Assembly (NCBI GenBank): GCA_026770705.1
Contig: JANJGN010000003.1
Location: forward strand, 115,382,001-115,446,000
Direction of reading: 5' to 3'
Length of the DNA: 64,000 nucleotides
Source: Isurus oxyrinchus
Lineage: Eukaryota
Made by a program: the position numbers and the translations under genes. This document shows positions 1,530 through 64,000 of this stretch, one piece after another. The notes under the pieces were generated by a model, which saw nothing but the letters and a program-made list of their open reading frames with translations, did no database searches and had not been told where the DNA came from. Position 1 is the first letter of the stretch. Each line of letters begins with the position of its first letter.

Positions 1530-2181
1530 TACTTTAAACAATGCACCTGGAATGAGGGGGTCCCCAGCTTGCTATGACCATATTTGGCAACTGGCTAATT
1601 TGTAAATGGAGGGCAAGTGATAACAAGCTAGCCCTTTGTGGTAAATATCTGAAAGTGTGTTCTCCAATTACAGTAGTGGAAGCTCCCGAGACTACTTTCA
1701 TTTTTACTAGTTTACCATTCACCTGTATGTAACAAATATTGGCTCTGTCTTACCAACTTTCATGTTAAACAATGAAAAATGTCAGAATTTGTTGTTTCAG
1801 AGTCTTCTACACTGAAGCTTTGGAGCTGCAGCATTCCACACGAATCAGGAAATCACCTGAAAGACTGAACTTGTAAATTTCATGACCTGTGTAAATATAA
1901 TGTCATGAGATAAATATACTTGTAAATACAATATGTACAGCAAAGTTAAAGGGGGAGGAATGTAGTAATTATGGTTTTGCTAAATGTTAGACTATACCTC
2001 TAAGAATAGTCCTGTGATGTAAGATCACATGATCTGTGTAAACCAATGTGTTAGCAGTGTGGGCTACCTCCACAGTGTAGAGATAGAGATGGAGTTGAAA
2101 ACACACGTGTGGTTGCTGCTGGCTGTAGAAAGTTGTCTGCAGATCAACTCTATTACAAATAGGTGACAAGACCACACTACA
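1530..2181. mobile_element. Rearranged Gypsy remnant: inverted protease fragment, PPT and short LTR
   Basis: Minus ORF 1534-1722 (NGKLVKMKVVSGASTTVIGEHTF) matches the Gypsy protease at 28962-29147. PPT AAAGGGGGAGGAA precedes TGTAGT...ACTACA (1961-2181). Confidence 0.7.
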
Positions 2182-25460: not shown

Positions 25461-26894
25461 ATCAAGGGCTGGATTTTGTATGTCCCCGCTGGGTGTTTTC
25501 AGTGGGGTTGGGGGCAGACATAAAATAGAGTGGGTGCCCAGCCCAGTATCTTTCATCCACTCCCAATCTAACTCCCATAACACGGTAAGTGGGTGGGCGC
25601 AAGTATCGGCAAACCACCCGCCATATGTAAATAAATAAGAAGGGTTATTGAGCTTGTTAACAAGCCAACTACCCCAATAATATGCTGCCCACACCAAAAA
25701 AAGATTGGTGTGTGCAGTTGGGTGGGAGTTGGCAGCCCATGTGACATTGCACAGTACAATAAGTCTCAAAGCTGCAGTCACTTCATATTCCTTAAAAATA
25801 CAGTTACTACATTCCTTCCCCATTACTTTTTTTTTACAATTTGTATTTACAAGAACAACTACATTCATGACATTACAAATATATACATGGGTTATGAAAT
25901 TATAAGTTCAGTCTCTCAGGTGGTTCCCTGATGCGGGTGGAATGTCATAGCTCCATGACTTTAGAATCTCTTACTGAATCTTAATTTTCTGGAACTGCAG
26001 TAACATCAGGTACTTCTTTAGGTACAGGCAGTTCAGTGTTATCTACTCCCACAGAGATGTCTGGTATGTCTATCCTTGGTTGATCAATCACAACGGGGAC
26101 AACAGGTTCTACAATGGTTACAGGTGGAACATCATCTTGTTGGGGTATCTCCCTTCTTCTCAAATGATCCACGTGTTTGCAGGTGATCCAGCCCACACTT
26201 CTACAATGGCAATGGTATGACAAGGGTCCGGTCACAGAAACTATTACACCAGGTAACCAACTCGATCCACCACCGAAGATTCGTACAAATACTGTTTCAC
26301 CAACAGTAAATTCTCACTCTCGACTATGCAAATCATGAGTCACTTTTTGATTCCCTTGACTGTTCTCTATCTTCCCCTCCACATTGGAAAGTACCAGACT
26401 TAATCTCATACGAAGGTAGCACTTCATAAGTAACTCTGAAGGTGTTGAACCTGTAGTAGTGTTGGGAGTCGTTCTATAGTGAAACAGGAAATATGAAAGT
26501 TTAGTCTCCAATGATCCTTCCGATAATTTTTTCATCCCAACTTCAAAAGTTTCTACTGCTTTCTGGGCCAACCCATTAAACGATGGATGATATGATGCTT
26601 TTACGTGTTTGATACCATTTAGGTTCACGAATCTTTGAAATTCAGCACTAATAAATAGAGTGTTATTGTCTGAGACAATGGGTTCTGGCAATCCACTTTG
26701 GGGTAACCTTTCTATAGTTGCACCTGATATTGGCGATCTAAATTCAGATGTGTCTAACCATTTGGAATGTGCATCAATTATTAGCAGAAACATGGTGCCT
26801 AGAAATGGACCTACATGATCTATATGCAGTTTCGCCCAGGGTCGACCAGGCCATTCCCAAAGATGCAGTGGAGCTGCAACAGGCAACTTCTGTA

Positions 26895-27122
26895 ACTTTT
26901 CCGAGTACAACCCCATTTCCATCTGTTTCAGATGAAGTTACATTGTTTCATAGTTTGTCATTGTGAGATTTGAACTCTTGATACTCTTTCGAGCACAACC
27001 CCATTTCCATCTGTTTCAGATGAAGTTACATTGTTTCATAGTTTGTCACTGTGAGATTTGAACTCTTGATCTTGGGGTTACAAACCCAGTACCATAATCA
27101 CTTGGCTATTTAGGCCAAGCCC
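26895..27122 (-). mobile_element. tRNA-Thr(UGU)-like SINE with a tandem 88-bp tail unit
   Basis: Perfect 14-bp TSD AGGCAACTTCTGTA (26881-26894, 27123-27136). Head TAGCCAAGTG...ACTGGGTTTGTAACCCCAAG...GAGTTCAAATCTC. Direct repeat 26902-26982 / 26990-27070. Confidence 0.8.
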
Positions 27123-30007
27123 AGGCAACTTCTGTAGTTGCTGGCACTGGTGACAGTGTTTAACCATTTTTATTTTATATCACTGTCTACACCTAGCCAC
27201 CAGATATAGCTCCTTGCAAGCATTTTCATTTTGGAAATTCCAGGATATATGCTATGCAACTCAGTTAAGGGTGCCTCCCTTCCTTGTGAAGAAACATTGA
27301 CTTGTGCACCCCGTAACATGATATCATCCTGACTGCTCAATTCATTCGTTCGAGTGAAGGATGGCTTCAATTCTTTGGAGACTGGCTTCTGGGACCATCC
27401 TTTCAATACTTAGTCATGTACTCTAGACAAGACTGGATTGTGGTTCATCCAGTTTCTTATTTGACTCTTGAGGAGTTGGAGCATGTTCAATGCTCTCCTG
27501 CAAAGGAAGGTGACTCAAGGCATCTGTATTAGTTATATGCATCCTTGGTCTGTGCATAAAAGTATATTCATATGCTGATAAAATCAAAGCCCATCTTTGA
27601 ATTCTTGCAGAAGCTATAAGAGGGATAGCTTTTTCTTTGCTGAACAGACCCAAGAGTGGTTTGTGATCAGATACTATAGTAAAGTGTTGGCCAGGTGCAT
27701 TCTGATGGAATTTTTTAACTCCAAAAATAATCGATAATCCTTCTTTCTTCATTTGTGAATAACCCTTCTCTGGCATAGAGATGGTTCTGGATACAAAGTC
27801 TATTGACCTTTCTGAACCATCGTCCAACTTGTGAGATAATACCGCTCCCATGCCATTGGGGCATACGTCGCAAGTTAGCACCAATTCTTTTGTCGGTCGC
27901 TGTGTGCTATCAAGTTCAAAGAGTGCAAGACCTGTTTAACTTTCATGAAGGTTTCTTCTTGAGGTGATTTCCAAGACCAACATTGGTTTTTCTTTAATAA
28001 TGAGTGTAGAGGGGCTAGCACCATTGATAAGTCGGGTAGGAATTGACCATAGTAATCACCCATACCCAAGAATGACTTGAGTTTTGAGATATTTGTAGTT
28101 AAGGGTGCCTCCTTAATATCTTTAACTTTTTCTTCTACTGGGTGTAACCCTTGGGCATCCACCTGGTGGCCCAGGTAAAAGACTTCACTTGCCTGAAAGG
28201 TGCACTTTCCCTTTTTCAAGTGCACTCCTGTTTCCAAGAATTGTTTTAAGGCTCCTCCCAAGTTGCCAAGTGTTCCACTTCTGTTAACCTGGTTATTAGA
28301 ATGTCATCCAGGTAGACCATGACTTGAGGTAGTACTTGCAGCAAACTCTCCATCGTCCTCTGGAAAATCGCGCAGACTGAAGAAGTACCAAAAGGCAGGC
28401 ATGTATATTGATACAATCCTTTGTGTGTGTTTATGTTTACAAATCCTCTGGGTGTATCATCCAGTTCTACCTGCTGATATGCATAACTCATATCTAATTT
28501 AGCGTAAGTTCTTCTCCTGCTAATTTGCCATACAGATCCTCAATCCTGGGATAGGGAACTTGTCCAACTTGGCAGCCTTATTTACTGTTAACTTATAATC
28601 CCCACAAATGCAGATGGTCTGATCCAATTTCAAGACAGGGACTATGGGTGCTGCCCATTCCGAAAATTGAGCCAGCTGAATAAAACCCAGCTTCTCTAAA
28701 TGGTTTAATTCAGTGTAAACCTTCTCTCTCAGGGCATAAAGCATGGGCCTGGCTTTAAAAAATGAGGAGTTGCTTCAGAGTCAACATAGATCTTAACATG
28801 CAGACCCTTGACTTTCCCCAGTTTCTCTTGAAATAGATTGTCATATTTCTTTAGCAACTCTGGCAGTCCTCCAGCTCTCAGCAGGAAACTTTCAGACCAA
28901 TTTTTAATTTATTTTAGCTAATCATGACCTAGAAAGCTTGGTCCTTCACCTTCCACTACAATCACAGGGAGCTGTGCTGTCTGGTGCCTGTAATAAACAC
29001 TTTCACTTGTATGGCTTCACCAGTATACATTTTCAATTTGGCTGAAGTCTGCTCCATATTCAATTGTTGAGTACCCTTATTTAAATATTTAAATGTGTGC
29101 TCCCCCACTACAGTGGCTGATGAACTGGTATCCACTTCCATAATCAAAGGTTTTCCATTGACCTGCAGAGTAACAGTGATTGGCTGTTTTCACTACTTTC
29201 ACATTAAATAGAGAATAAACATCAGAAGTAGTGGTTTCTGGTGCCTTCACATTAGGTACTTCGATCAGTTTAGTTTGCTGCTTGGGAGCCTGTCTCAATC
29301 TTGCTTTACATTGTTTACATGTGCCCTCTTTTATGACAATAATGGCACTCCACCTCTTTAAAATGGCAGGTTTCATGAATATGGATACTTCCACATTGAT
29401 AACAATTCATTTTCAGATTTGCTGTTGAGCTGTTTCCTGTATATTTTTTAACATTTTCAGGTAGCAGGCACTGTCTCCCGCTTCGCAGCTGATTCCCTGG
29501 TTTTTGTGCCACACCCGGCCATCTCTTCCCGCCCCAATGGGAAAATTACTCCATTTTGTACACCCTGTAAGGCCTATGAATCCCATTTGGTGCTTTCCAT
29601 CGCAAACGCTATTTCCAATGCTCTTTTAAAATTGATATTCACTTCGGCTAATAACCATCGTGGAATGGCATCATCCTGCACACCACAGGCCAAACGATCC
29701 CTTAACATTTCATTTAGGGTCTCCCCGAAGTCACAATGTTCAGTTAGCTGTTTCAATGTATGTTGCTATGGTCTTCCCCGGGGCTCTTAATCTCAAATTA
29801 AATTTGAACCTCTGCATGATTATGGAGGGTTTGGGTTGAAAATGACCCTTTATGAAGTTTACTAATTCATTGAATGTCTTCGAATCGGGAGCATTCAGGG
29901 CCCTCAAACTATGGATTAAATTGTAAGTTTTACTCCCATAGATGCTTAGGAGAATTGTTTTCCTTTTTTAATCCACTATAGTTTTGTTTGCTTGGGAAAA
30001 AAGCAAG

Positions 30008-30860
30008 AGAACATAAGAAATAGGAACAGGAGTAGACCATTTGGCCCCTCGAGCCTGCTTCGCCATTCAATAAGATCATGGCTGATCTTCTTGTGTTTCA
30101 ATTTCCACATTCCCATCTAACCCCAATAACTTTTGATTCCCTTGCCTAACAAGAATCTATCTACCTCTGCCTTAAAAATATTCAATGACCCCACCTCCAC
30201 CACCTTCTAAGGCAGAGAGTTCCCAAGTCACACAACCCTCTGAGAGAAAAAAAATCTCCTCATCTCTGTCCTAAAAGGGTGAGCCCTAATTTTAAAACAG
30301 TGCCCCATAGTTCTGGAATTACCCACAAGAGGAAACACCTTTCGGTGTCCACCTTGTCAAGGCCATTCAGGATCTTGTATACTTCAATCAAATTACCCCT
30401 TACTCTTCTAAACTTGGAAACAAGCCCAATCTGTCCAAATCTTTCCTCATAAGACAACCCACTCATTCCAGGTATCAAAGTAGTAAACCTCCTTTGAACT
30501 GCCTCTAACGCATTTACATCCTTCCTTAAATAAGGAGACCAAAACTGCGCACAGTATTCAAGATGCAGCCTCACCAATGCCTGTGTAACTGAAGCATGAC
30601 ATCCTTACTTTTATGCTCAATCCCCCTTGTAATAAAGGATAGCACTCCTTTAGCCTTCTTAATTACTTGCTGTACCTGCATACTAACGTTTTGTGACTTA
30701 TGTACTAGAACACCTAAATCCCTCTGCATCTCAGAATTGTGCAGCCATTCTCCATGTAAGTAATACTCAGTTTTTTTGTTCTTCCTGCCAAAGTGAACGA
30801 CTCTACATTTTCCCACATTAAACTCCATTTGCCAGATCTTTGCCCACTCACTCAATCTAT
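30008..30860 (-). mobile_element. CR1 family B 3' fragment inserted in Gypsy gag
   Basis: RLHLEYCAQFWSP and WQMEFNVGKC motifs. The Gypsy gag resumes on both sides. Confidence 0.9.
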
Positions 30861-31344
30861 CAAGGCATTCTATATATTGACTCCAATCCCCTATGGATGA
30901 GCCAAAGGGGTTAATCCTGCCAAAAAGTGGCATATATTATCCCTTTCTTCTGTTGAAAACAGGATACTTGCATTCAGTGCGTGAGGGACAGCACCGGAAC
31001 CAATTTATCCTCGTTGCTGGTTGTTATACACTGGATTTTCCAGACAGGTTTTTCATAAGGAACAGTGAACTTTACTCACAGGGTTTCAGCAGCAGTTACA
31101 TGCTTCCATCAAGAACCACAACTGGACACAAACACCATCCCTAAGGTTCCCCATGCTTAGAGCTGATTCGTTCACACTGTCACATGATACTACACAGTAC
31201 AATAAGTCTTAAAACTACAGTCATTACATTCCTTAAAGCTACAGATGCTACATTCCTTAGAGTTATAGTTACTACTATAAAAGCTACTACTACTACTAAA
31301 GCTACAGTGACTACATTCCTTAAAGCTACAGTTACTGCAAGAAG

Positions 31345-35500: not shown

Positions 35501-37602
35501 TCAAAATTGTCCTAAATCCAAACAACAGTGTTGTTGGGCAGACAGATTTCTTGTAATATTTAATTTACTTCTTCTTCAAAAGAAACCCCCTTTTTATATC
35601 AGTAGAAACCAACTGGATGGTCAGTGTATGCCTTTTTGTTTTCCTAGAATCCCTTTGAATTTCAGATAACTTTCCCTCAAAATGTTTAGAGTGTGAACCC
35701 ATATGAATTATAATTAATTCATCAATTTCAATTTCTTGTGCCCAAACTTGCTGGTTTTGAAAAGTCTGACATTCATTGGTCAATGTGTTTACATCAGATT
35801 TCCCATACTCAAGCACTTTGTTTGGGAAATAACCAATGGCCTGAATGGGATAAGACCAAATTCCTCTTAGTTTTCCTTTTTTAGAAAAGAAAGTCTTTAG
35901 CTCATGACTATTTTGTCAAAGCTACTGCAGATCTTGTTACTTGCAATTTACCTGTAAGAAAAATACAAAAGATCCATTTTGCTCAGGGCAAAATGGGTTA
36001 ATTTGTCCAAACATATCTGACAATTGAGAAGCTTAAAAATTTCGAAATGCCCAATACAAATACATTTTGTAGAAACTGTTTCTACGTTTTGATTTCTTAA
36101 CGTTCCCCTCAGGCTGTATTTTAAATTATTCATCCAATTGTTTAAAATTCCAAGCTCTCTTTTTTATTTCTCCTACTTTATGCCATCTAAACTCAAGTTC
36201 CAATTAGCAGAATCTCCAATCTCAAAATTTTCCCTTTTCTAGGGACAAAATTCCCAAATCCTTAAACTTTGTAATGAGTTTTTAAAACCAATTCAAGTAG
36301 GATTAGCCATGATCGCTTCAAATATCCCAGATTCCAATCAACCCTACCAAACATTAACACTACCTTGTGCTCACATGTGTCAATTCATATCCGGATTAAA
36401 ATTCCCACATGTTTATCAAAATACCCTGGAATCATGATTCTGGCCAGTAATCATGACTCCAGGTTCCTACCGTGAAGATTTTACTTCATTCACTCCCTTT
36501 TAAGGAAGATATCACAATTCCTATTGTGAAATTTACTTTAACTCAAGAGTAGTAAAACTTGCTACTATAAAAATCTCAGTTTCAGGAGAAATTTTAAAAC
36601 ATACTCATCTGCGCAAAATTGTTATCACATTCATATTCTCTCCTTTTTGGAAGCATTCAGCTCTCTCTCTAAAATATTCCTTTAACTTTATCATTGGTTA
36701 ACAAACCAACGAACGTAGCGCATGTTTTACAAAGAAACAAAAGAAAATAAGTCCTGGGTTCCCAAGGTCTTCTTTCTTCAAGATGCCTTTTGAAACACCT
36801 GTAAGTAGGAACTCAAGAAAAAGGTCAATTTTCACAGTACAACATCCTAACTTCAGACAAAATTTAAACCTAACAGCAGCCTCACACAGCACGGGAGAGG
36901 ACCCACTTTATCTCTTTCTCTCTCAGTATAAAAAACACCTTTTTTTACAGTTCAATACTCATGTTATCATAACTTCTTTCTCAGTTACACCAGTTGTAAA
37001 AAAAATACAGCTTTTGAAACATATTAAACAACCAGTTGATTTAAAGCCACATACAGAAACAGACACCAGGGGTTAAGTGATACGGCCAGTGGCTTGCAAA
37101 CACACGGAGAAATCAAAGAGACAAAAGACCCAGTCTCTCTCTTTCTCTTTCTCTCTCACACACACAGACACACACTCAGCACAAAACAATAACACAATTG
37201 GATTTAACACTTACAATATTCACCCTGTGGCAGGCACTGAACACTGGAACACAGACGCACAAAATCAATAAAAAAACACAAACAGAAACTGAATCCACTT
37301 CTATACACACAAAGTTGCTTTAACTGTTCACACAGCATTTTAACTATACCGTGGGTCTATCAATTTAATTTCTTACTTTCCCCTGACCATTTTCCATGAC
37401 CCCGAAGTTTCTCTTATGTCTCAACCTTACCCAAACAACTGGACCATGATCTCACTGTTAAGAAGCACATCTCTTCTTATCTCAGCAGGGATCAGTACCT
37501 AAGATAAAAACAAAGAAAACTGCGGATGCTGGAAATCCAAAACAAAAACAGAATTACCTGGAAAAACTCAGCAGGTCTGGCAGCATCGGCGGAGAAGAAA
37601 AG

Positions 37603-37642
37603 AGTTGACGTTTTGAGTCCTCATGACCCTTCGACAGAACTT
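37603..37642 (-). ncRNA. Hammerhead ribozyme motif in 3' pLTR, GAAA mutated to AAAA
   Basis: Same as the copies at 40905 and 41921 except for the substitution at 37614. Confidence 0.65.
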
Positions 37643-38114
37643 GATTTCGAGTCCAAGAAAGAGTTGAAATATAAGCTGGTTTAAGGTGTGTGTGTGGGGG
37701 GCAGAGAGATAGAGAGAGAGAGAGGTGGTTGTGTGGACAAACAAGCAGTGATAGAAGCAGATCATCAAAAGATGTCAGCAACAATGGTACAATAGAACAC
37801 ATAGGTGTTAACGTTAAAGTTGGTGATATTATCTAAACGAATGTGCTAATTAAGAATGGATGGTAGGGCACTCAAGGTACAGCTCTAGTGGGGGTGGAGA
37901 GAGCATAAAAGATTTTAAAATATTTAAAAATAATGGAAATAGGTGGAAAAAGAAAAATCTATATAATTTATTGGGGAAAAAAAAAGGGGGGAAACAGAAA
38001 GGGGATGGGGATGGGGGAGGGAGATCACGACCTAAAGTTGTTGAATTCAATATTCAGACCGGAAGGCTATAAGGTGCCTAGTCGGAAGATGAGGTGTTGT
38101 TCCTCCAGTTTGCG

Positions 38115-40769
38115 TTAGGCTTCACTGGAACAATGCAGCAAGCCAAGGACAGACATGTGGGCAAGAGAGCAGGGTGGAGTGTTAAAATGGCAAGCCACAG
38201 GGAGGTTTGGGTCATTCTTGTGGACAGACCGCAGGTGTTCTGCAAAGCGGTCGCCCAGTTTACGTTTGGTCTCTCCAATGTAGAGGAGACCACATTGGGA
38301 GCAACGAATGCAGTAGACTAAGTTGGGGGAAATGCAAGTGAAATGCTGCTTCACTTGAAAGGAGTGTTTGGGCCCTTGGACGGTGAGGAGAGAGGAAGTG
38401 AAGGGGCAGGTGTTACATCTTTTGCGTGGGCATGGGGTGGTGCCATAGGAGGGGGTTGAGGAGTAGGGGGTGATGGAGGAGTGGACCAGGGTGTCCTGGA
38501 GGGAGCGATCCCTATGGAATGCTGATAAGGGGGGTGAAGGGAAGATGTGTTTGGTGGTTGCATCATGCTGGAGTTGGCGGAAATGGCGGAGGATGATGAT
38601 CCTTTGAATGCGGAGGCTGGTGGGGTGATAAGTGAGGACAAGGGGGACCCTATCATGTTTCTGGGAGGGAGGAGAAGGCCTGAGGGCGGATGCGCGGGAG
38701 ATGGGCCGGACACGGTTGAGAGCCCTGTCAACGACCGTGGGTGGAAAACCTCGGTTAAGGAAGAAGGAGGACATGTCAGAGGAACCGTTTTTGAAGGTAG
38801 CATCATCGGAACAGATGCAACGAAGGCGAAGGAACTGGGAGAATGGGATGGAGTCCTTACAGGAAGCGGGGTGTGAGGAGATGTAGTCGAGGTAGCTGTT
38901 GGAGTCGGTAGGTTTGTAATGGATATTGGTGGACAGTCTATCACCAGAGATTGAGACAGAGAGGTCAAGGAAGGGAAGGGAAGTGTCAGAGATGGACCAC
39001 GTGAAAATGATGGAGGGGTGGAGATTGGAAGCAAAATTAATAAATTTTTCCAAGTCCCGACGAGAGCATGAAGCGGCACCGAAGTAATCATCGATGTACC
39101 GGAGAAAAAGTTGTGGAAGGGGGCCGGAGTAGGACTGGAACAAGGAATGTTCCACATACCCCATAAAGAGACAGGCATAGCTGGGGCCCATGCGGGTACC
39201 CATAGCCACACCTTTTATTTGGAGGAAGTGAGAGGAGTTGAAGGAGAAATTGTTCAACGTGAGAACAAGTTCAGCCAGACGGAGGAGAGTAGTGGTGGAT
39301 GGGGATTGTTCGGGCCTCTGTTCGAGGAAGAAGCTAAGGGCCCTCAGACCATCCTGGTAGGGGATGGAGGTGTAGAGGGATTGGACGTTCATGGTGAAGA
39401 GGAAGCAGTTGGGGCCAGGGAACTGGAAATTGTTGATGTGATGTAAGGTGTCAGAGGAATCACGGATGTAGGTGGGAAGGGACTGGACAAGGGGAGAGAG
39501 AAGGGAGTCAAGATAACGAGAAATGAGTTCTGTGGGGCAGGAGCAAGCTGAGACGATCGGTCTACCGGGGCAGTTCTGTTTGTGGATTTTGGGTAGGAGA
39601 TAGAAGCGGGCCGTCCGAGGTTGGGCGACTATCAGGTTGGAAGCTGTGGGAGGGAGATCCCCAGAGGAGATGAGGTCAGTGACAGTCCTGGAAACAATGG
39701 CTTGATGTTCAGTGGTGGGGTCATGGTCCAGGGAGAGGTAGGAGGAAGTGTCGGCGAGTTGACACTCAGCCTCCGCGAGGTAGAGGTCAGTGCGCCAGAC
39801 AACAACAGCACCACCCTTGTCAGCGGGTTTGATGACAATGTCAGGGTTGGACCTGAGAGAATGGAGTGCAGTAAGTTCAGAGAGAGACAGGTTAGAATGG
39901 GTGAGAGGAGCAGAGAAATTGAGACGACTAATGTCGCGCCGACAGTTCTCAATGAAAAGATCAAGAGAAGGTAAGAATCCAGAGGGAGGGGTCCAGGTGG
40001 AGGGAGAATATTGGAGATGGGTAAAAGGATCTGTTGAACTGGGAGAGGACTCCTGCCCAAAGAAGTGAGACCGGAGATGAAGACGGTGAAAGAAGAGTTC
40101 AGTATCATGCCGAGCCCGAAATTCATTGAGGTGAGGGTGTAAGGGTATGAAACTAAGTCCTTTGCTGAGCACTGAACATTCAGCATCAGAGAGGGGAAGG
40201 TCAGGGGGTATAGTGAATACACGGCTGGGGCTGGGATTGGAAGATGGGGTGGGGACGGAGGGACAGGCTGGGGTGGAGGGTCCTAGATGGGTGTTGGTGT
40301 CGATGAGTTGTTGGAGCTTGCGTTCCTTAGCAGTTGAGAGAAAGAGAAAAAGTTTCTTGTTGAGGCGTCGGATGAGCCGAAGGATAAAATGAAACTGGGG
40401 GCACGCGCAGCTTTGAAAAAGGGTACGGCGGTGCTGCTGGAGGGAGAGGTCGAGTGTGTTCATATGGCGGCGCATGGCACTGAGTGTGGATTTCAAAATG
40501 TGACGGGAACAGCAGTCTGAGAAACGTTTTATGTCCCGGAGATACCGGTAATCCTGGGTGGGTTCGAAAGATGAGGGGTGGAATTTCAGTGGAAATCCAC
40601 GTGGGGTAAGTCGGAGACGGAGACAGTCACTGAGAAAGGAGATATGGCTGTGAAACACCTTGTCAAACACCAGGAGGGAAATGGAAAGCAAAGAAGGTGA
40701 ACAAGGCAACAGAGAGATACGGAAATCTTGTCGCAGAGAGGAACAGAACTTCTTCAAGGAGGTAGGCAT
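38115..40769 (-). CDS. Penelope-like RT plus GIY-YIG endonuclease, C-terminus cut by a premature TAA
   Basis: KPADKGG, LPKIHK, GRPIVS, GVAMGTRMGPSYA, YIDD, Cys motif CPRKRCNTC, VYCIRC..C.LLYIGET. First ATG is at 40769 (the ORF track starts at TTG 40793). Confidence 0.93.
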   Translation of the reverse strand: MPTSLKKFCSSLRQDFRISLLPCSPSLLSISLLVFDKVFHSHISFLSDCLRLRLTPRGFPLKFHPSSFEPTQDYRYLRDIKRFSDCCSRHILKSTLSAMRRHMNTLDLSLQQHRRTLFQSCACPQFHFILRLIRRLNKKLFLFLSTAKERKLQQLIDTNTHLGPSTPACPSVPTPSSNPSPSRVFTIPPDLPLSDAECSVLSKGLSFIPLHPHLNEFRARHDTELFFHRLHLRSHFFGQESSPSSTDPFTHLQYSPSTWTPPSGFLPSLDLFIENCRRDISRLNFSAPLTHSNLSLSELTALHSLRSNPDIVIKPADKGGAVVVWRTDLYLAEAECQLADTSSYLSLDHDPTTEHQAIVSRTVTDLISSGDLPPTASNLIVAQPRTARFYLLPKIHKQNCPGRPIVSACSCPTELISRYLDSLLSPLVQSLPTYIRDSSDTLHHINNFQFPGPNCFLFTMNVQSLYTSIPYQDGLRALSFFLEQRPEQSPSTTTLLRLAELVLTLNNFSFNSSHFLQIKGVAMGTRMGPSYACLFMGYVEHSLFQSYSGPLPQLFLRYIDDYFGAASCSRRDLEKFINFASNLHPSIIFTWSISDTSLPFLDLSVSISGDRLSTNIHYKPTDSNSYLDYISSHPASCKDSIPFSQFLRLRCICSDDATFKNGSSDMSSFFLNRGFPPTVVDRALNRVRPISRASALRPSPPSQKHDRVPLVLTYHPTSLRIQRIIILRHFRQLQHDATTKHIFPSPPLSAFHRDRSLQDTLVHSSITPYSSTPSYGTTPCPRKRCNTCPFTSSLLTVQGPKHSFQVKQHFTCISPNLVYCIRCSQCGLLYIGETKRKLGDRFAEHLRSVHKNDPNLPVACHFNTPPCSLAHMSVLGLLHCSSEA

Positions 40770-40904
40770 TTCTTGAAGAGCAGTGGCAGTCAATTAAACA
40801 CAGAGATAAAAACAAAGAAAACTGCGGATGCTGGAAATCCAAAACAAAAACAGAATTACCTGGAAAAACTCAGCAGGTCTGGCAGCATCGGCGGAGAAGA
40901 AAAG

Positions 40905-40944
40905 AGTTGACGTTTCGAGTCCTCATGACCCTTCGACAGAACTT
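40905..40944 (-). ncRNA. Minimal type I hammerhead ribozyme motif in 5' pLTR
   Basis: AGTT-CTGTCGA-A-GGGTC-ATGAG-GACTC-GAAAC-GTC-AACT. Confidence 0.72.
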
Positions 40945-41920
40945 GATTTCGAGTCCAAGAAAGAGTTGAAATATAAGCTGGTTTAAGGTGTGTGTGTGGG
41001 GGGCAGAGAGATAGAGAGGTGGTTGTGTGGACAAACAAGCATTGATAGAAGCAGATCATCAAAAGATGTCAGCAACAATGGTACAATAGAACACATAGGT
41101 GTTAAAGTTAAAGTTGGTGATATTATCTAAACGAATGTGCTAATTAAGAATGGATGGTAGGGCACTCAAGGTACAGCTCTAGTGGGGGTGGGGGGAGCAT
41201 AAAAGATTTTAAAATATTTAAAAATAATGGAAATAGGTGGGAAAAGAAAAATCTATATAATTTATTGGGGAAAAAAAAGGGGGGGGAAACAGAAAGGGGG
41301 TGGGGATGGGGGAGGTAGCTCACGACCTAAAGTTGTCCGCAAGAATGACCCAAACCTCCCTGTTGCTTGCCATTTTAACACTCCACCCTGCTCTCTTGCC
41401 CACATGTCTGTCCTTGGCTTGCTGCATTGTTCCAGTGAAGCCTAACGCAAACTGGAGGAACAACACCTCATCTTCCGACTAGGCACCTTACAGCCTTCCG
41501 GTCTGAATATTGAATTCAACAACTTTAGGTCGTGAGCTCCCTCCCCCATCCCTACCCCCTTTCTGTTTCCCCCCCCCTTTTTTTTTCCCCAATAAATTAT
41601 ATAGATTTTTCTTTTTCCACCTATTTCCATTATTTTTAAATATTTTAAAATCTTTTATGCTCCCTCCACCCCCACTAGAGCTGTACCTTGAGTGCCCTAC
41701 CATCCATTCTTAATTAGCACATTCGTTTAGATAATATCACCAACTTTAACTTTAACACCTATGTGTTCTTTTGTACCATTGTTGCTGACATCTTTTGATG
41801 ATCTGCTTCTATCACTGCTTGTTTGTCCACACAACCACCTCTCTCTCTCTCTATCTCTCCGCCCCCCACACACACACCTTAAACCAGCTTATATTTCAAC
41901 TCTTTCTTGGACTCGAAATC

Positions 41921-41960
41921 AAGTTCTGTCGAAGGGTCATGAGGACTCGAAACGTCAACT
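41921..41960 (+). ncRNA. Minimal type I hammerhead ribozyme motif in inverted pLTR
   Basis: Stem I AGTT/AACT, stem II GGGTC/GACTC, GAAAC-GUC. Predicted cut after 41956. Confidence 0.72.
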
Positions 41961-43569
41961 CTTTTCTTCTCCGCCGATGCTGCCAGACCTGCTGAGTTTT
42001 TCCAGGTAATTCGGGATCAGTACCTGTTGCATGCCCATTTTCCCTTTTAAGTTCCAAGTTTCCTTTCATGCCCTGCATCTTACATTCTCTGACTTGTGAT
42101 AAGCCTTGCCACATTTCTCAGCACAATAAACTGTTCTAACCAAAAGCTCTGTTACCTTCTCAACTCTCAGCTTTTCCTCCTCCATCCATTCTTGAATGAA
42201 CACAACTTCTGCAAAAGGGACTCTGTCCCCCACCTCCAGGCACTCAGTGGGTAGTGTCTTGAACTCTTTATTAGACAACTTCTCTACTTCAGGGATCTTG
42301 TCCCTTTTCTGTTCCTTTACCAAATGGTAAGCAACCTTCATACCCTCACACCCAGTCTTCCAGTCCTGAGTCTGTGCCTCAACCTCATAATATAACCTCT
42401 GATACTTGTTTCTCTCTTCCTCTATCTTAGAGACCTGCACGGATAATAGCTCATGGCCTATTCATGCCTGGACTGTCTTGTGGCCCTTTCTGTCTTTAGT
42501 TCCTTCTTCAAACGGTTAACTACCGCTTCCCTGTCTGAGGCTTGTTTCCTCAGGATCTCTTCTTCTTGTCTGGGTTTAATATTTTCTCACAGATCTTCAC
42601 GGTTTTGATGGTCCTTTCCATACAACCACATTGCCTTTTCTATCTTCTTTTGCCTTTGGGATGACTCAGTCCACCCCATGACCCACCCTAATGGATCCTT
42701 TGAATTAGCTATTTCTCTTAACCAAGCCTCACTTGGCTTTAGCTTCTCATAGCTATGCTTCTGTAACCTCATTTCCATTGTCATGGGAGGATCATTTCTC
42801 CACCCCCACTTTGTCCCACGGTACAGTCTGTTCAGCCATATCACCTACAGGTGTCCTGACATGGTCGCTAATTCTGTAGGGGTTCCCCTTTTCCCTCAGA
42901 GATCCTGCCCGCACTTAAGTTTGTGACACCAGATTCACAAGTGTATGGCTTGAACAGAATAACCAGCGAGACACGTTTCTTCTGATAATTCACAATTGCT
43001 TTATTGAATCACCAATAACCCCACAGTACAAAATTCAAAATTTAAAACCACCAGTTCCCAGTACCCGACCCAAAGTCACCATGACTTGGTTAAAACTTAC
43101 AAAAGCACAGGCAAAACACTACATCCTGTCCTGAAACCTTAAGAAAAAAATAACCCTCAACCAATATGCCCAAGATATGGCTGAAACAAGTTACAAGGTA
43201 CTGGCAAAAAACACCAAGTTTTCGCCCCAGACTGTCACAAAACCCTCAGACCAACATTACCACGATATGGCTGAAAACAATTACGATCCCCAACACGGCT
43301 GGTCTGTCTTGTAAAAACTGTAGGTCCGTGAGCCAGGTTGACACTTCCTGACCCTCATTCTTGACTGCAGCTTATCTTTTTTGAAATTTAGAATTCCACA
43401 AATTTTCCAGTTGGAGGGGATTTCGATCCTACAGGCAGCACACTAACTACACTACTGAAAAATATTCTGGAACATACATGATGAATAAGTGGACACTGTA
43501 GATTTTCTTCGTTGGGCTGTTGAAATACAGACTGTAAGAAACAAGCTTACTCCACCAGCAGAAGTGCAG

Positions 43570-45070
43570 CATAGGAGCAGGAGTAGGCCATTCAGCCCAT
43601 CGAGCCTGCTTCGCCATTCAATACAATCATGGATGAACATCCACTTTAATTCCTTTTCCCTTTATGTCATTAGTATTTAGAAATCTGTCAATCCCTGCTT
43701 TAAACATACTCAATGACTGAGTTTCCCACAGCCCTCTGGGGTAGAGAATTCTAAAGATTCACAACCTCTGAGTAAAACAAATTCTCCTCATCTCTGTGCT
43801 AAGTGGCTTCCTCCTTATTCTGAAATTGTGTCCCCCTGGTTCTAGGCTCCCCAGCCAGGGGAAACATCTTACCTGCATCTACCCTGCCTATCCCTTTAAG
43901 TATTTTGTAGGTTTTAAGCAGATCACCTCTTATTATTTGAAACTCTAGAGAATACAGGCCCAGTTTCTCCAATGTCTCTTCATAAGACAGTCCTGCCATC
44001 CCTGGACAAAATTGGTGAACCTTTGTTGCACTCCCTCAATGGCAATAATACCCCTCTAAGCAAGGGGACCAAGATTGCTCACAGTACCCCAGGTGCGGTC
44101 TAGCCAAGCTTCTATACAGTTGAAGCAGGACTTCATTACTACCATACTCAAATCTTCTTACAAAAAAGGCCAACATACAATTAGCCTTCCTAGTTGTTTG
44201 CTGCACCTGCATGTTAGCTTTCAGTGACTTATTGATGAGAACACCCAGGTCTCTTTGTACATCTACACTTTCTAATCTCTCACTATTTAAAAAATACTCT
44301 GCACATCTATTCTTCCTACCAAAGTGGATAACCTCACCTTTTTCCACACTATATTCCATCTGCCATGTTCTTGCCCACCTCATTAAGTCTTCGCTTTGCA
44401 TCTTCCTCACAACATACATTCCCACCTAGCTTTATGTCATCTGCAAACTTGGAAAATATTACATTTGGCCTCCACATCCAAATCATTGATATATATTGCG
44501 AACAGCTGGGTCCCAAGTACTGATCCTTGTGGTACCCCCACTAGTCACAGCCTGCTAACGTGAGAATGAGCTGTTTATTCCTACTGTCTGTTTTCTACCT
44601 GTTGACCAATCCTTAATCCATACCAATATATTACCTCCTATCCCATGTACTTTAATTTTTCTAACAAACCTCCAGAAAATCAAATACTTGTGAATATCCA
44701 AGTATATTGCGTCCACCGACTCTCCTTTGTCAATTTTATTAGAAACGTCCTCAAAAAACTCCAACAAGTTCATCAAACATGATTTCTCATTCATAAATCT
44801 ATGTTGACCATGTCCAATCTAACCATTATTATCCAAGTGTCCATTTATCACATACTTTAGAATAGATTCTAGCATTTTCCCTACTACTGATGTAAGGCTA
44901 ACAGGTCTGTAGTTCCTTGTTTCTCTCTCCCTCCCCTTGATAAATATTGGGGTGGCATTTGCTATCTTCCAATCTGCAGAAACCATTCCAGAATCTATAG
45001 AATTTTGGGAAGATGGATCACTAATGCACCCACTATCTCATAGCAACCACTTTCAACACTCTGGGATATT
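43570..45070 (-). mobile_element. CR1 family B RT fragment
   Basis: KSCLMNLLEFFE, WQMEYSVEK and LARPHLGYCEQSWSP motifs. Confidence 0.9.
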
Positions 45071-56995: not shown

Positions 56996-59912
56996 TATAG
57001 TAATTGTAGCTTTAAAGAATGTAGTGACTGTAGCTTTGAGACTTATTGCGCTGTATACTATCATGTGACAGTGTGAATGAATCAGCTCTAAGCCCGGGGG
57101 ACCTTAAAGTGGGAGTTCTTCTTCTAGATGTGGAGCTTGATGGAAGATGTAACCACTGCTGCAGCCTGTAAGTAAAATATGATGTTTCTAAATGAGAAAT
57201 CTGCCTCAAGTCCATAACAAACTGGCGATGAACACTGGGTCCGGCATTGTTCCTTACCCAGCAACCATGAGAATCTTGTTTAAACAGAAGAACAGGTAGG
57301 TATGTCACACTTTGATGGTATTGACCCCTTCAAACCATCCACAGAGGATTGGTGTCAATATATAGAATGCCTCGGGTTCTATTTCCAGGCAACCAAAATA
57401 ATGGGGAGGAAAAGAGGAGAGCAATTCTTCTAAGTGTTTGTGGGACTAAAGCCTATAATTTAATCCAAAGTTTGATGGCCCTGAATGCCCATGATTTGAA
57501 GACCTTCAGTGAATTGGTTAAGGGACACTTTCAACCCAAAACCTCAGTCACCATGCAGAGGTTCAGGTTTAATTCAAGGGTTAGAGCCTTGGGGAAGACC
57601 ATTGCTACATATGTGGTGAAATTAAAACAACTGACTGAACACTGTGATTTTGGGGAGACCCTAAGTGATATGCTCAGGGATAATTTGGTCTGTGGTGTGC
57701 AAGATGATGTCATTGAACAACAATGATTAGCTGAAGTTAACCTCAATTTTAAAAAGGCATTAGAAATAGCGCTCTCGATGGAAAGCGCTGAATAAGACAT
57801 ACAGGTTATACAAGGTGCTGTTTTCCAGTTGGGGTGTGAATGGACAGCCAGGTGTGGCACAAAAAGCCAGGGCTCCACCACAAAGCAGGACACAGTCCCC
57901 GCTACCCGGAAATTTTAAATAAATACAGGAAAAAGCTCAGCAGCAAATCTGAAAATGAATTGTTACCGATATGGAAGGATATCATACTGCTGAAACTTGC
58001 CCTTTTAAAAAGGTGGAGTGGTATTTTTGCCATTAAAGAGGGCACATACTTAAGCATTGTAAAGCAAGATTGAGACAGACTCCCAAGCAGCAGACTAAGT
58101 TAATTGAAGTACACAATGTGGAAGAAGCAAAAACCACCAATTCTGGTATTTACTCCCTATTTAATGTAAAAGTAGGGAAGACAGAGCCAATCACTGTTAC
58201 TCTGCAGGTAAATGGAAAACGTTTAATGAAGGATTGATGCTTCAACTACTGTAGTGGGAGAGCACACCTTCAAGTATTTAAACAAGGGTACTCAACAACT
58301 GAATTTGGAGCAGACTTCAACCAAATTGAAAAGATACGCTGGTGAAGCTATCCAATTGAAGGTATTACCACTGTACCTGTTTATTATAAGCAGCAAACAG
58401 TTCCCTGTCATGGTAGTGGAAGGCGAAGGACCAAGCCTTCTAGGTTGCAATCGGTTGAGGGTAATTTCAAAAGGAAGCTGGAAGAGTTCCTGAATTGGGA
58501 AAACAACAAGACAAAGTACTTCAGAATGAGCCTGGAGAGTTCAAGGACCTTAGCAGGGTGCGAAAGGAGTGTGTAGTCATTCAGCAACCTGAGGAAATGA
58601 AGACTGTCTTAAACAGCAGCAGGAAAGAACAGCAGAAGAGACTCAAGGAGACTGCTGAATTACAGAATTCAAGATGAAGCGAGTGAGCTCCGTAAAGAAA
58701 AGGAAACCTGTTGAAAGACCTTCACACATGACAAAGACCCCTCAGTCAAAGTTTCTACCTCTGGAAAATTACGAAGGGAAGCAAAAAGAATTTAACGTCG
58801 CCCTGAACAAACTGAAGAATCAGTTGGGAGAGAAGACGCAGCAATTTTCAAGGTTTCAGGAGGAAGTCAACAGATAGAAGAAGGAGACAGAAGAGCTAAA
58901 GAATCAGCTGAATGGAACAAAAGAGGCATCAGAAGGAATAGTTGTGGAGCTTTCCAAAATGCAAGTGGGTGTTGAAGCCATGGGCAGCTCAACCCCTGAA
59001 CGGAACCAAGATGAGATTTCGCCTGAAAGAAGTCTGGCCACCTGTGAAGTCAAAATGATGATGAGACTAAACTCTGTGGTAGACTGAAGAAGACAAGATG
59101 GATGATGGTTCAGAAAAGACAATGAACAATGACCCACACTACTACAGGTTCACCACCTTCAGAGTTACTTATGAAGCGACACCTTTGAATGAGATTAAGC
59201 CTGGTACTTCCCAATTTAGAGGGAAAGATGGAGAAAAGTCAAGGGAATCAAAAAGAGACTCATGATTTGCATAGTCGAGAGCAAGAATTTACTGTTGGTA
59301 AAGCAGTGTACGTACGAAAATTCGGTGGTGGATCCAGTAGGTTACCTGGTGTAATAGTTTCTTTGACCAGACCCTTGTCGTACCACATAGAAGTGTGATC
59401 ACTCACAAACACGTGGATCATTTGAAAAGAAGGGAGATACCCCAACAAAATGATGTTCCACCTATAACCATTGTAGAACCCGCGGCCCCTGTTGAAATTG
59501 TTCAACTAAGGATAGACATACCAGATGCCTCTGTTGGAGTAGATAACGCTGAGCTGCCTGTGCCTAAAGAGGTACCTGATGTTGCTACAATTCTAGATAA
59601 TGTGGATCCTGTAAGAGATTTGAAAGCCATGGTAGATGTTCTTATAAATACAAATTGTACAAAAATTTTAAAGGGGGAGGAATGTCGTAATTGTAGCTTT
59701 AATGAATATAGTGACTGTAGCTTTAAGACTTATTGTGGTCTATAGTATCATGTGACAAAGTGAGTGAATCAGCTCCAAGCAAAGGGAACCTTAGAGTGGG
59801 AGTTCTTCTCCTAGTTGTTGGAGCTTGATGGAAGCATATAACTGCTGCTGCAGCCTATAAATAAAGTTCAATGCTTCTATGAGAAACCTGTCTGGAAAAT
59901 AAAATCCAAACA
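56996..59912 (+). mobile_element. G-A family Gypsy derivative with RT/RH/IN core replaced by coiled-coil cargo
   Basis: LTRs 56996-57219 and 59683 to about 59912, PBS TGGCGATGA, PPT 59670-59682. Gag/protease and IN C-terminus are colinear with 25735-31340. Confidence 0.88.
58466..59130 (+). pseudogene. Coiled-coil cargo ORF remnant, UACA-like
   Basis: KFLPLENYEGKQKEFNVALNKLKNQLGEKTQQFSRFQEEVNR*KKETEELKNQL. Homologous to 63250-63800. Confidence 0.6.
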
Positions 59913-61290: not shown

Positions 61291-62581
61291 TCTATGCTCC
61301 AACTCTAAAGCAGAAAACCTTTGTTGGGAACAAATGAGGACGAATCCAAGTTGTAGTGGTTTCTGCATAATATGGTTATCCCCTGACTAGAGATCTAATG
61401 GGTTTCTAAATTGGTCCCAATCCAAATTTTTGGGCTGTTATTTTCTAGACATAGTTTTTGCAAACCTCAAATTATGGAAGTATTGGAATCATTATTCTAA
61501 CTGAGGAACACTTGCATAAACTCTTTTGTGTTATTACCAACCAAGGAATTCCAAACTAAAATGTATGAAAATGAATGCACAGTGTATAAGTAATGAAAAA
61601 GAAAGAGGCATTGATTATGAAATCATTACATAATAACTGAATCACAGCTGCAGCTATGATAGGATTGACAATAAAATGTATCTAGATATATAATTCTAGG
61701 AGAACTAGAGAAGGAAGAAAGGGAGGTGAGGCAGGGCATTAATTGGAATCAGCCTTAATGTTCTACAATTTAAAGATTTAAAGATTGGAGGAGTGGTCCA
61801 AATTGAGCTGAGAAATGGCATGGATTTGCTTTTTCTACTGCAATATGCAATGCATCTACATTACTGAGTTTCTTTTGGACCAGCCATGGCTGCACCAACT
61901 AGCTCTTTTTTAGTTTTGTTTTCTGTAAATATCATTTGTATTCACCTCATGTCCGATGGCAGAATCATCATCTGATTAAGACAGTGAGAAATGCCATTTC
62001 CAAAGTATTATGCTCCAGGTGCAGTCTCCAGGTCTTTTATTCTGAATGATTATAATATGTTTGGTGGCTTTCTTTCCTCAGAGTCTATCATAGCCTACCA
62101 TTCCACTGCAGATGAGCACCTGAAAAATATGATACACAGTCAATAGACCCAAGCTGCACTGCAGACTGCAGCTTGCTTAAGGTCACATTGAGCTCAGCAA
62201 TAAGACACCTCTACACATCCTTGTATGTGACTTCAATCCCAAACTACTTACTCTGTAATATTAGACGAACACAGGCAGTAAGAATGCCTTTTTTCCAACA
62301 CAAAAAAGACTTAAGCTGGGGTGTAAAACGTGACTAGTTATCCTGTACCAATTGCAAAATCTAAATGGTGTGAAATTACCTGCCTTCCACCTTTCAGTTT
62401 CAGTCTGTTTGATCTAAAATCCTAAACTGACTCCCAAGTTATTCTTTAGTGTCAGTTTGGTTGGAAATCACTTTGCATCCATGCAGAAGGAGAAACACAA
62501 TGGCAGACTAAGTTAATTCTTAGATTATTGTCTGTTATGTCTTACCATGGGGTCACTTTATCTGTCAGCAGACTGGTTGAT

Positions 62582-64000
62582 TACAATATACTGCAGACGC
62601 AGAGACCAATATGAAATGAAGCACGTACTATTTATTTACACAAACAACAGAGCACTAACATGATGTGTTCTTCTCCAGCCAGACCCTACTCTAACCTAAC
62701 ATTAACATGGTAGCCCGTGCTACACAGCCATTGGGTCCTACAGTCACGAAGTCAATTTGCTCACATTCTTTTAAAGGTGTATTACACCTCAGATTACCAC
62801 ATCCCTCCCCCTTTACTTGAAAGTACATTTTACAATATGTTAACTATTTACATAAATTAACCATTTACAAATTCAGTCTCTCAGGAGGCTTTTTCAAATG
62901 TGTCGACCATCATAGTTCTACAACTTTGGATGGTTTATCTGAGGCCTCTCTCTCAGGAGGAACCGGTAAGTTTGCCTCTTCAATTCTCTCAGATTCAACG
63001 GATCCTACAGGTACTTCCAAAGCAAGAGGAGTTCCTTCTACATGTGGTGTAGACTCCAACAGGAATGTTTTCACCCTCTTTCAGGCCCCATCGCATGTAC
63101 TCCTGCTGCCCCTCCCTCCAAGTTCAAGAATATGAAGGGCAACTGTGAGGAAAATTTTGAGAATCAGGATATTGGGCAAGGCTAAATTTAACACAGAATG
63201 ATCAGCTGCCTGCTGTGTGAAAAAAAAATTCGGGGCCTTGATAGTAATTTCACTTTCTCTTCCTACGTGTCTTCTTTTGATGGGCTTTCTTCTTGGCAGC
63301 ACTGACTTTAGTCTCGGCTTCCTCTTCAACTTCCCTATTGGCCAGACTGGGCTCAGGTGTGAGCTCAACTTGAGTGAACTCGGCAGTTGAGTCTTCCAGC
63401 ATTTCCTCATCTGTCAGCTCCTTTGAAAAGTCAGGGATCTTTAGTTTTAAGGCTTCTTGGTTTTCATGTAACTGATTCTTCAGCTCTTACATTTCTTTTT
63501 TATATTTGTTAGTTGTTTCCTGGAGAATTAAGTATTGTTGCGCTTTCTCAGCTAATTTATTCTTCATCTCAGCCAGAAACATGCTAAATTCTTTCTGTTC
63601 TTCCTCATATATTTTTAGTGGTACAAATTGGAATCTGAGGGAATCTTGCAATATGTGAAAGTCCTTCAGCAGATTCTCTCTTTCTTTTTGGAGGTTACTG
63701 ATTTCAGCTCGAAATCTGTCCTGAAGCATCAGCTCTACAAGTTCCTTTTATTGAGTATTTACATGCTCCTTTCCCAAACAGCAATATTTCCTGCTCCTGA
63801 TTGAGATTGCAGTTATACCCTTTACACTTATGTCTTCCCCAGTATCTGTCTTTAGTCTAGTATCCGAGTTTTCCAGCTTTAATGAGTGGCCTCCTCCATT
63901 CAGATAAACGTGTGTTCCCCTATGACTGTCGTGGATGTGCCTGTATCCACCTCCATTCGAATGAGTTTTCTGTTGACTTCTACTGTCACGTAGATTAGCT
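62582..64000 (-). mobile_element. Second Gypsy derivative with a different LTR: protease, coiled-coil cargo, PPT, 3' LTR (runs off the window)
   Basis: Minus strand reads RMEVDTGTSTTVIGEHTF. PPT AAAGGGGAGGGA, then an LTR starting TGTGGT at 62801. The LTR end is approximate. Confidence 0.8.
63250..63800 (-). pseudogene. Coiled-coil cargo ORF remnant, UACA-like, with a basic C-terminal tail
   Basis: QFVPLKIYEEEQKEFSMFLAEMKNKLAEKAQQYLILQETTNKYKKEM*ELKNQL...KKKAHQKKTRRKRK*. Confidence 0.6.

Follow-up and report, generated by a model that had tools for sequence, protein, structure and literature searches.

A high-copy Gypsy element family in Isurus oxyrinchus with a UACA-derived coiled-coil fragment fused to Gag and protease in place of the reverse transcriptase-integrase core

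The window that we analysed is a stretch of 64,000 nucleotides from the shark Isurus oxyrinchus (contig JANJGN010000003.1, positions 115,382,001 to 115,446,000), and we count positions from its first letter. At 56996-59912, on the forward strand, it contains an LTR element of 2.9 kb. The 5' LTR (56996-57219) and the 3' LTR (59683-59912) are direct repeats that are 83.7% alike over 57000-57206 and 59687-59893 in a self-comparison of the window. A putative primer binding site (PBS-like sequence, 57223-57235) lies directly 3' of the first LTR, and there is a polypurine tract at 59670-59682; by our reading of the sequence, both are at the expected places. The 5' end of this copy has decayed, and the TG and CA ends of the LTRs are present in family copies L003 and L028. 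Among the seven copies with both ends located, one has a perfect 5-bp target-site duplication and two more match at four of five bases; the window copy matches at three of five.

The self-comparison also shows that the element is colinear with a pol-containing element on the other strand of the window (25735-31340), as an earlier, sequence-only reading of this DNA had claimed. The two match at 57005-57372, across gag and protease (57382-58445, 76%), and at the integrase end (59133-59632, 85%). Reverse transcriptase (RT), RNase H, and the integrase core are absent from the block between the protease and integrase ends. What remains of the element's own coding region is a decayed gag (57302-58200, with capsid and zinc-knuckle region), whose column yardsticks are nearly identical to those of the pol-containing family; a decayed aspartyl protease (58200-58465), which in sister copies matches Pfam gag-asp_proteas under the curated cut-off and whose frame is common across copies; and, after the family's stop codon, a C-terminal remnant of integrase (59133-59632). 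The window copy is broken by several stops and frameshifts. We call the LTR backbone of this family B; two others, A and C, are described below.

According to the sequence-only reading, the pol core was replaced by 665 bp of unrelated, UACA-like coiled-coil sequence at 58466-59130. The UACA part stands for 58559-59005, but the ends of the insert are something else. An old linker between protease and RT that moves with the cargo occupies 58466-58558 (from 58466 to about 58550 there is a weak alignment with the corresponding linker in the pol-containing element). A short remnant at 59093-59125, with the family stop codon near 59122, comes from RNase H: copies with pol, among them window 27802-27832, match 59093-59123 in their RNase H region. 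Between the UACA match and this remnant is a cargo tail (59006-59092) that is similar to backbone A and C copies and does not match the region of the host UACA gene. By these alignments, about a third of the insert is pol-derived or unassigned, and its edges are still pol-derived.

The host UACA gene and its exons are located in the same genome (C25, about 4.808-4.893 Mb), and two parts of its 2.7-kb exon align with the window insert at 72-74% DNA identity. Piece 1 (58559-58903) corresponds to G000:C25:4882696-4883047, with 74.4% identity over 352 columns, and piece 2 (58895-59005) to G000:C25:4883489-4883599, with 72.1% identity. The join between them is an in-frame deletion of 450 bp at which 9 bases overlap, and the same deletion is found in 40 distinct loci. 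Both pieces are present in all 30 family loci that we compared to the host exon at the DNA level. In the copies compared, the cargo falls wholly inside a host interval of 1.55 kb (C25:4882050-4883600), and neither the N-terminal ankyrin repeats of UACA nor its full exon set is in the cargo. The cargo is a fragment of UACA and not a UACA paralogue. At the protein level, a natural open frame of a sister copy matches five proteins of cartilaginous-fish type, of which four are named UACA by their source and the fifth is unnamed; the best match, to shark UACA, has E = 4.8e-37, and identities are 59-61%. The single-chain model of the cargo predicts that residues 29-100 and residues 108-177 each form a long helix (mean pLDDT 71.5, pTM 0.26). 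Elements related to backbones C and A also lie near the host UACA gene, on the opposite strand (G000:C25:4785884-4786259 and 4912437-4914758).

Could the likeness to UACA be mere coiled-coil composition? Pfam and PDB sequence searches with the cargo give generic coiled coils only, with the Pfam families below cut-off, and taken alone the Pfam result would fit this explanation. However, the cargo aligns to UACA with a score of 385, as compared to a maximum of 93 for 100 residue shuffles, a maximum of 158 for 100 shuffles of seven-residue blocks, and 86-87 for two TPR coiled coils, so correcting for composition does not remove the match. Together with the DNA-level match to two defined exon stretches, in 30 of 30 loci, this rules out composition. 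A one-off later insertion is ruled out as well, by identical junctions across copies: among the other loci that we fetched, the integrase-end remnant follows the insert in 29 of 29 and the sequence continues upstream into the protease region in 28 of 29. We give these two explanations virtually no weight.

Searching the genome with the insert gave 4,084 first-look candidates (which are not copy numbers), and all 40 of those that we scored match; the 39 that are not the window copy itself are 84-90% identical to its insert. This is a non-autonomous, high-copy Gypsy family, much as had been suspected from the one copy, and all copies examined have decayed. We also considered a Gag-derived host gene that has been domesticated. 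The window copy is broken, and among 150 scored matches of 19,837 candidates, the longest frames are about 500-510 codons and there is no intact host-retained copy, so we rejected this idea.

Gag-NC, protease, linker, and cargo form one reading frame across copies, which ends near 59122. That they might be a single open frame had been raised as a question about the family, and the answer comes from the other copies. With natural open frames as references, one frame extends in most copies from about 57946 across the protease, the linker, and the cargo, and over this span there is no codon position that is a stop in most of the backbone B copies. A stop lies just after about 59122 in 25 of 28 other copies. 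The natural stop-free frame of a sister copy, with 508 codons, maps to window 57522-59001. The most common lengths of some intervals are not multiples of three, and these coincide with indels that are private to the reference copy. For the capsid-to-zinc-knuckle part of backbone B, the reference-frame test is ambiguous, and the frame rests on the one natural 508-codon frame and on column counts. At one codon of Gag, 12 of 22 B copies have a stop, as compared to 3 of 11 pol-containing copies and 0 of 18 C copies; the 12 copies do not cluster (permutation P = 0.36). Given this stop codon, a share of the B copies may have moved without the protein. Of the active-site residues of the protease, the first is the same as in the reference copy in 21 of 24 B copies, the second in 22, and the third in only 11. 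In backbone C, natural frames run from the protease through the cargo to the stop in 27 of 29 other copies. In backbone A, the frame counts from Gag to UACA are 8, 7, and 6 of 21 by a crude method, and one natural frame crosses the join.

The UACA cassette sits on three LTR backbones. One more of them is in the window: an element with a different LTR (backbone C; 62558-64000, minus strand, UACA match at 63476-63712) runs past the window end. There are 2,336 genome candidates for backbone C (again, these are not copy numbers). The element continues in L036 to 4594, and in sister copies the frame ends in a strongly basic tail; the window copy is without about 110 bp that are present in others. 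A search with the part of UACA that is absent from the window insert gave 244 matches from 150 scored candidates, plus the host exon. All 20 of the backbone A loci that we examined carry longer pieces of UACA, from the one 1.55-kb host interval, and a flanking repeat pair that is consistent with LTRs is detectable in 14 of the 20. In these 20 loci we found no similarity to the gag or protease of the helper, and direct BLAST of the backbone A Gag against the backbone C Gag gave no match. The N-terminal frame of backbone A may resemble a retrotransposon Gag, which we offer as a lead only. Beyond what had been read from the window, then, there is a two-piece cargo, purifying selection on it (see below), three backbones, and spliced TPR in a sister lineage.

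This TPR is a second coiled coil in many backbone A copies, which matches TPR proteins and passes the Pfam cut-off for Nucleoprot-TPR in four of five frames tested (1,827 candidates, not copy numbers). The host TPR gene is at G000:C16:74253892-74271208. All 20 of the backbone A loci that we examined contain a TPR piece, which covers 5-9 exons in each of them; as many as nine host exons in a row are joined and the introns are gone, which implies capture from spliced mRNA. The evidence for this is direct for TPR and would extend to UACA, whose piece lies in one exon. At internal deletions of the cargo there are overlaps of 6-15 bases. Sub-lineages keep different and partly non-overlapping pieces of UACA, and some copies carry TPR pieces without detectable UACA next to Gag. 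In L087-L106, pieces of TPR mRNA are often beside UACA pieces, in several orders and with tandem rearrangements. After the end of UACA and before TPR begins, there is a further helical segment (L106:1253-1600, L048, L190), part of which recurs in backbones B and C as their tail. Its source may be UACA that has diverged, or else a third gene; an ESM Atlas search with this segment returned only unrelated coiled-coil clusters.

The pol-containing element in the window is itself decayed, and its family (3,075 candidates) is likely the helper of backbone B, with which it has the LTR, Gag, protease, and integrase end in common. Copies of this family match Pfam RVT_1, RT_RNaseH, Integrase_H2C2, and rve above cut-off and in that order, so that pol is arranged as protease-RT-RNase H-integrase, which is the Gypsy order; by resemblance, we assume that the clade is Mag-like. 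The pol-containing copy in the window has an 88-bp tandem duplication (26895-27070) and is interrupted at about 30010-30855 by a repeat that also occurs at 13921-14774 and 43571-44378.

How did the same cargo come to lie on different backbones? Between backbone B and its pol-containing relatives, pN is 0.01-0.03 across Gag and protease, and there are 5 changes in 133 codons at the integrase end. In the 150-bp bin with the end of the protease and the linker, the difference jumps to pN 0.21 and pS 0.45. The cargo of B differs from that of A by pS 0.25. We looked at 45 stretches that belong to B's helper family, and none of them showed UACA. The protease of C is common to another pol-containing family: of 30 loci with a C-type protease, 16 continue into pol and 14 into cargo. 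Also, the 450-bp deletion is common to B and A, the main match of C stops at that same position in the host, and of the 59 codons at which B and the host agree, the A yardstick departs from the host at just 1. Because of these last three observations, we think that there was probably one capture and that A is closest to its origin. The simplest reading is that linker and cargo moved together, as a cassette, onto new helper backbones.

The cargo is under frame-specific purifying selection as a protein on element branches, although the counts are small. We used uncorrected Nei-Gojobori counting over 48-92 codons in the best-scoring 30 copies of each family, and for changes on element-only branches we used the columns where A equals the host. 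On the element branch of B there are 20.5 nonsynonymous and 15.5 synonymous changes in the cargo (pN/pS = 0.31), and on that of C there are 20 and 24 (pN/pS = 0.20). Changes that are private to one copy have pN/pS of 0.84 (B) and 0.63 (C), and in the two shifted frames the ratio is 0.86-4.0. Fisher P is 0.007-0.013 for B and 0.0005-0.0008 for C. No stops are present among the column yardsticks of the cargo (139 for B, 72 for C, and 354 for A). The integrase end, which lies after the stop, is near neutrality (pN/pS of 0.87-0.97 for singletons). All six of the deletion lengths that are seen in at least two distinct loci (102, 126, 210, 450, 453, and 753) are multiples of three, while none of the three independent single-locus deletions (43, 137, and 743) is in frame. 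From this count we left out a 2,070-bp pairing that was seen once and probably aligned by chance, as well as the lengths 98, 451, and 766, which were each seen at a single locus and lie beside recurrent ones. In-frame deletions may be favored by repeat-derived microhomology in coiled-coil DNA. The TPR variants that are common to at least three copies (73.5 nonsynonymous to 26.5 synonymous) look near neutral and show no clear selection. The cargo has also diverged a great deal: B is identical to host amino acids at 91 of 139 columns, and C has drifted to about 65% DNA identity with the host.

The capture seems to be old. In the cargo of A, 0 of 20 residues that are derived in the host's own lineage are present, as compared to 11 of 13 that are common to host and catshark, 3 of 41 that are catshark-specific, and 1 of 21 that are horn-shark-specific. 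This pattern places the capture near the ancestor of host and catshark, and we would date it to about that ancestor, which lived in the Jurassic. A basking shark protein (P0011) and a catshark protein (P0020) match element copies better than they match host genes, and these predicted proteins look like element fragments rather than host genes. In a search for annotated fusions in other species, we found one protein (from basking shark, with 177 amino acids) and none at 279-889 amino acids. The insertion in the window is at the same site in a second organism, where contigs bridge both flanks with a difference of about 1.3%.

What does the cargo do? We propose, at odds a little better than even (roughly 55%), that the fused UACA piece is conserved as a protein because it is a self-association domain that takes the place of the RT dimer and aids both assembly with a helper and the copying of the element's RNA. 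Host mRNA would have been packaged along with the element's RNA and captured by template switching, and the captured UACA would have replaced the RT-RNase H-integrase core, in frame behind Gag and protease. After this one capture, the cassette would have been transferred to new helper backbones by recombination near the end of the protease. The coiled coil would stand in for the RT dimer as an oligomerisation domain; the fusion protein would assemble with proteins of a pol-containing helper family, which would copy the element's RNA in trans; and the fusion protein would benefit its own RNA in cis. This last step would follow from the selection that we see along replicating lineages of an element that lacks pol, which suggests that the fusion protein helped its own RNA. 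There is some precedent in HIV-1: RT-RT contact promotes the activation of the protease (PMC11998509), and a leucine zipper behind the protease raises both the multimerisation of Gag-protease and cleavage (PMC3291649). However, the zipper also lowers particle yield via premature cleavage, so the element would not necessarily gain from such a fusion.

Because both of the unrelated donors are long coiled coils, because the cassette tolerates many deletions and reorderings, and because its model consists of two long helices, we favor generic self-association over the alternatives. Still, the cargo might be kept for binding host partners of UACA or TPR, for instance to target the nuclear envelope or pore or to damp defence or cell death. 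The constraint on amino acids is real, and we take both donors to be nuclear-envelope or pore-associated proteins, which counts for this idea. Also, genes that were captured by crocodilian endogenous retroviruses are under purifying selection and were proposed to act on host partners (PMC4299795). But sub-lineages keep partly non-overlapping UACA pieces or only TPR next to Gag, the ankyrin repeats were not captured, and C is at about 65% DNA identity to the host; a generic property accounts for these facts better than a specific interface does. We consider binding of host partners to be unlikely. It is slightly less likely again that the cargo is a tolerated spacer behind a Gag useful in cis, with selection for nothing but a long, open, harmless frame that would serve RNA stability or length. 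The many large deletions, the high protein divergence, and the near-neutral TPR variants would all be expected of a spacer. On the other hand, missense changes and not just stops are depleted, and solely in the UACA frame; the cargo reached new backbones intact, while near neutrality is seen at the integrase end after the stop; and if pol had simply been deleted, the element would be shorter and would have no cargo.

Another idea is that the fusion is a defective-interfering protein, which poisoned the helper's particles by co-assembly or by forcing the protease to dimerise, and that the spread of the element was a by-product. The early cutting of Gag and the reduced particle yield with zipper-fused HIV-1 protease (PMC3291649) are in keeping with interference, and the cargo families are comparable to the helper in number of candidates (4,084 and 2,336 versus 3,075, none of which are copy numbers). 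Nevertheless, the selection is seen along replicating element lineages, no intact host-retained copy is among the 150 scored matches (with longest frames of about 500 codons), and backbone A appears to be without protease. We think that interference is improbable. As for the self-association reading, it could be taken further: a portable UACA/TPR coiled-coil cassette may have been grafted repeatedly onto the Gag-protease of active Gypsy families, so that each graft becomes a non-autonomous family whose fusion clamps into the helper's particles and outcompetes the helper's RNA, with the cassette, and not any one element, as the long-lived selfish unit. We would not bet on this stronger version, which we hold tentatively. 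If it is true, sharks host an ancient parasite-of-parasites strategy.

The capture of host genes by LTR elements is already known; what is different here is the scale, the fusion to Gag and protease in place of pol, the exchange of the cassette among helpers, and the repeated choice of coiled coils. LTR-mediated retrocopies are known in animals (Tan et al. 2016, PMC5131818). As described there, these also have pieces of sense host mRNA in LTR elements, give in-frame products, and sometimes combine several parental genes in one element, but they are young and number from units to tens per species. The shark chimeras, in which host coding sequence is flanked on both sides by LTR-element sequence, form families with thousands of candidates, on three backbones and with selection at the protein level. 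The crocodilian endogenous retroviruses with KIT-ligand and nectin3 are similar in that these are vertebrate LTR elements with captured host coding sequence that is under purifying selection and shared between species (PMC4299795). According to the same source, they are retroviral, have 6-9 copies, and carry separate, nearly complete ORFs beside or in place of env, whereas the shark elements are Gypsy and have coiled-coil fragments that are fused to Gag (or Gag-protease) in place of RT-RNase H-integrase. In maize, the LTR retrotransposon Bs1 transduced several host genes into a chimeric ORF (cited in PMC7264820); it is a plant element, and the account of it given there mentions neither cassette exchange nor a coiled-coil theme. 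The nearest layout is an engineered one, the HIV-1 Gag-protease-leucine-zipper, which has a dimerisation helix directly behind the protease and in place of RT (PMC3291649). That construct lowered particle yield, while the shark layout arose naturally and persisted. In the literature that we searched, there is no report of this shark system; subscription journals, Repbase/Dfam, and supplements were outside the scope of that search and could hold these families under neutral names.

These elements also recall the gag-onc fusions of acutely transforming retroviruses, which depend on helpers, have lost pol, and have host mRNA fused to Gag, as in the shark element. Gag-onc retroviruses are short-lived isolates from the laboratory or from tumours and carry signalling domains; the shark element is an old germline radiation with structural coiled coils. 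Non-autonomous LTR elements are usually regarded as shells of cis signals. In the shark families, the ancestors of thousands of candidates retained, under selection, a protein domain from the host as they spread across unrelated backbones, and the coiled coils came from two unrelated genes. This makes for an extensive natural data set on the uses that a retroelement can have for captured host sequence, and a natural counterpart of the engineered Gag-protease-zipper fusions. There is likely an annotation trap as well: predicted shark genes that are UACA-like or TPR-like (for example P0011 and P0020) can be fragments of retroelements.

Two other features of the window may be mentioned. At 1642-2005 (minus strand) there are fragments similar to the protease of this Gypsy group and to its integrase end, with no UACA match. 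And 37502-42012 contains direct and inverted repeats of 500-680 bp that are 96-98% alike and much younger than the other repeats in the window.
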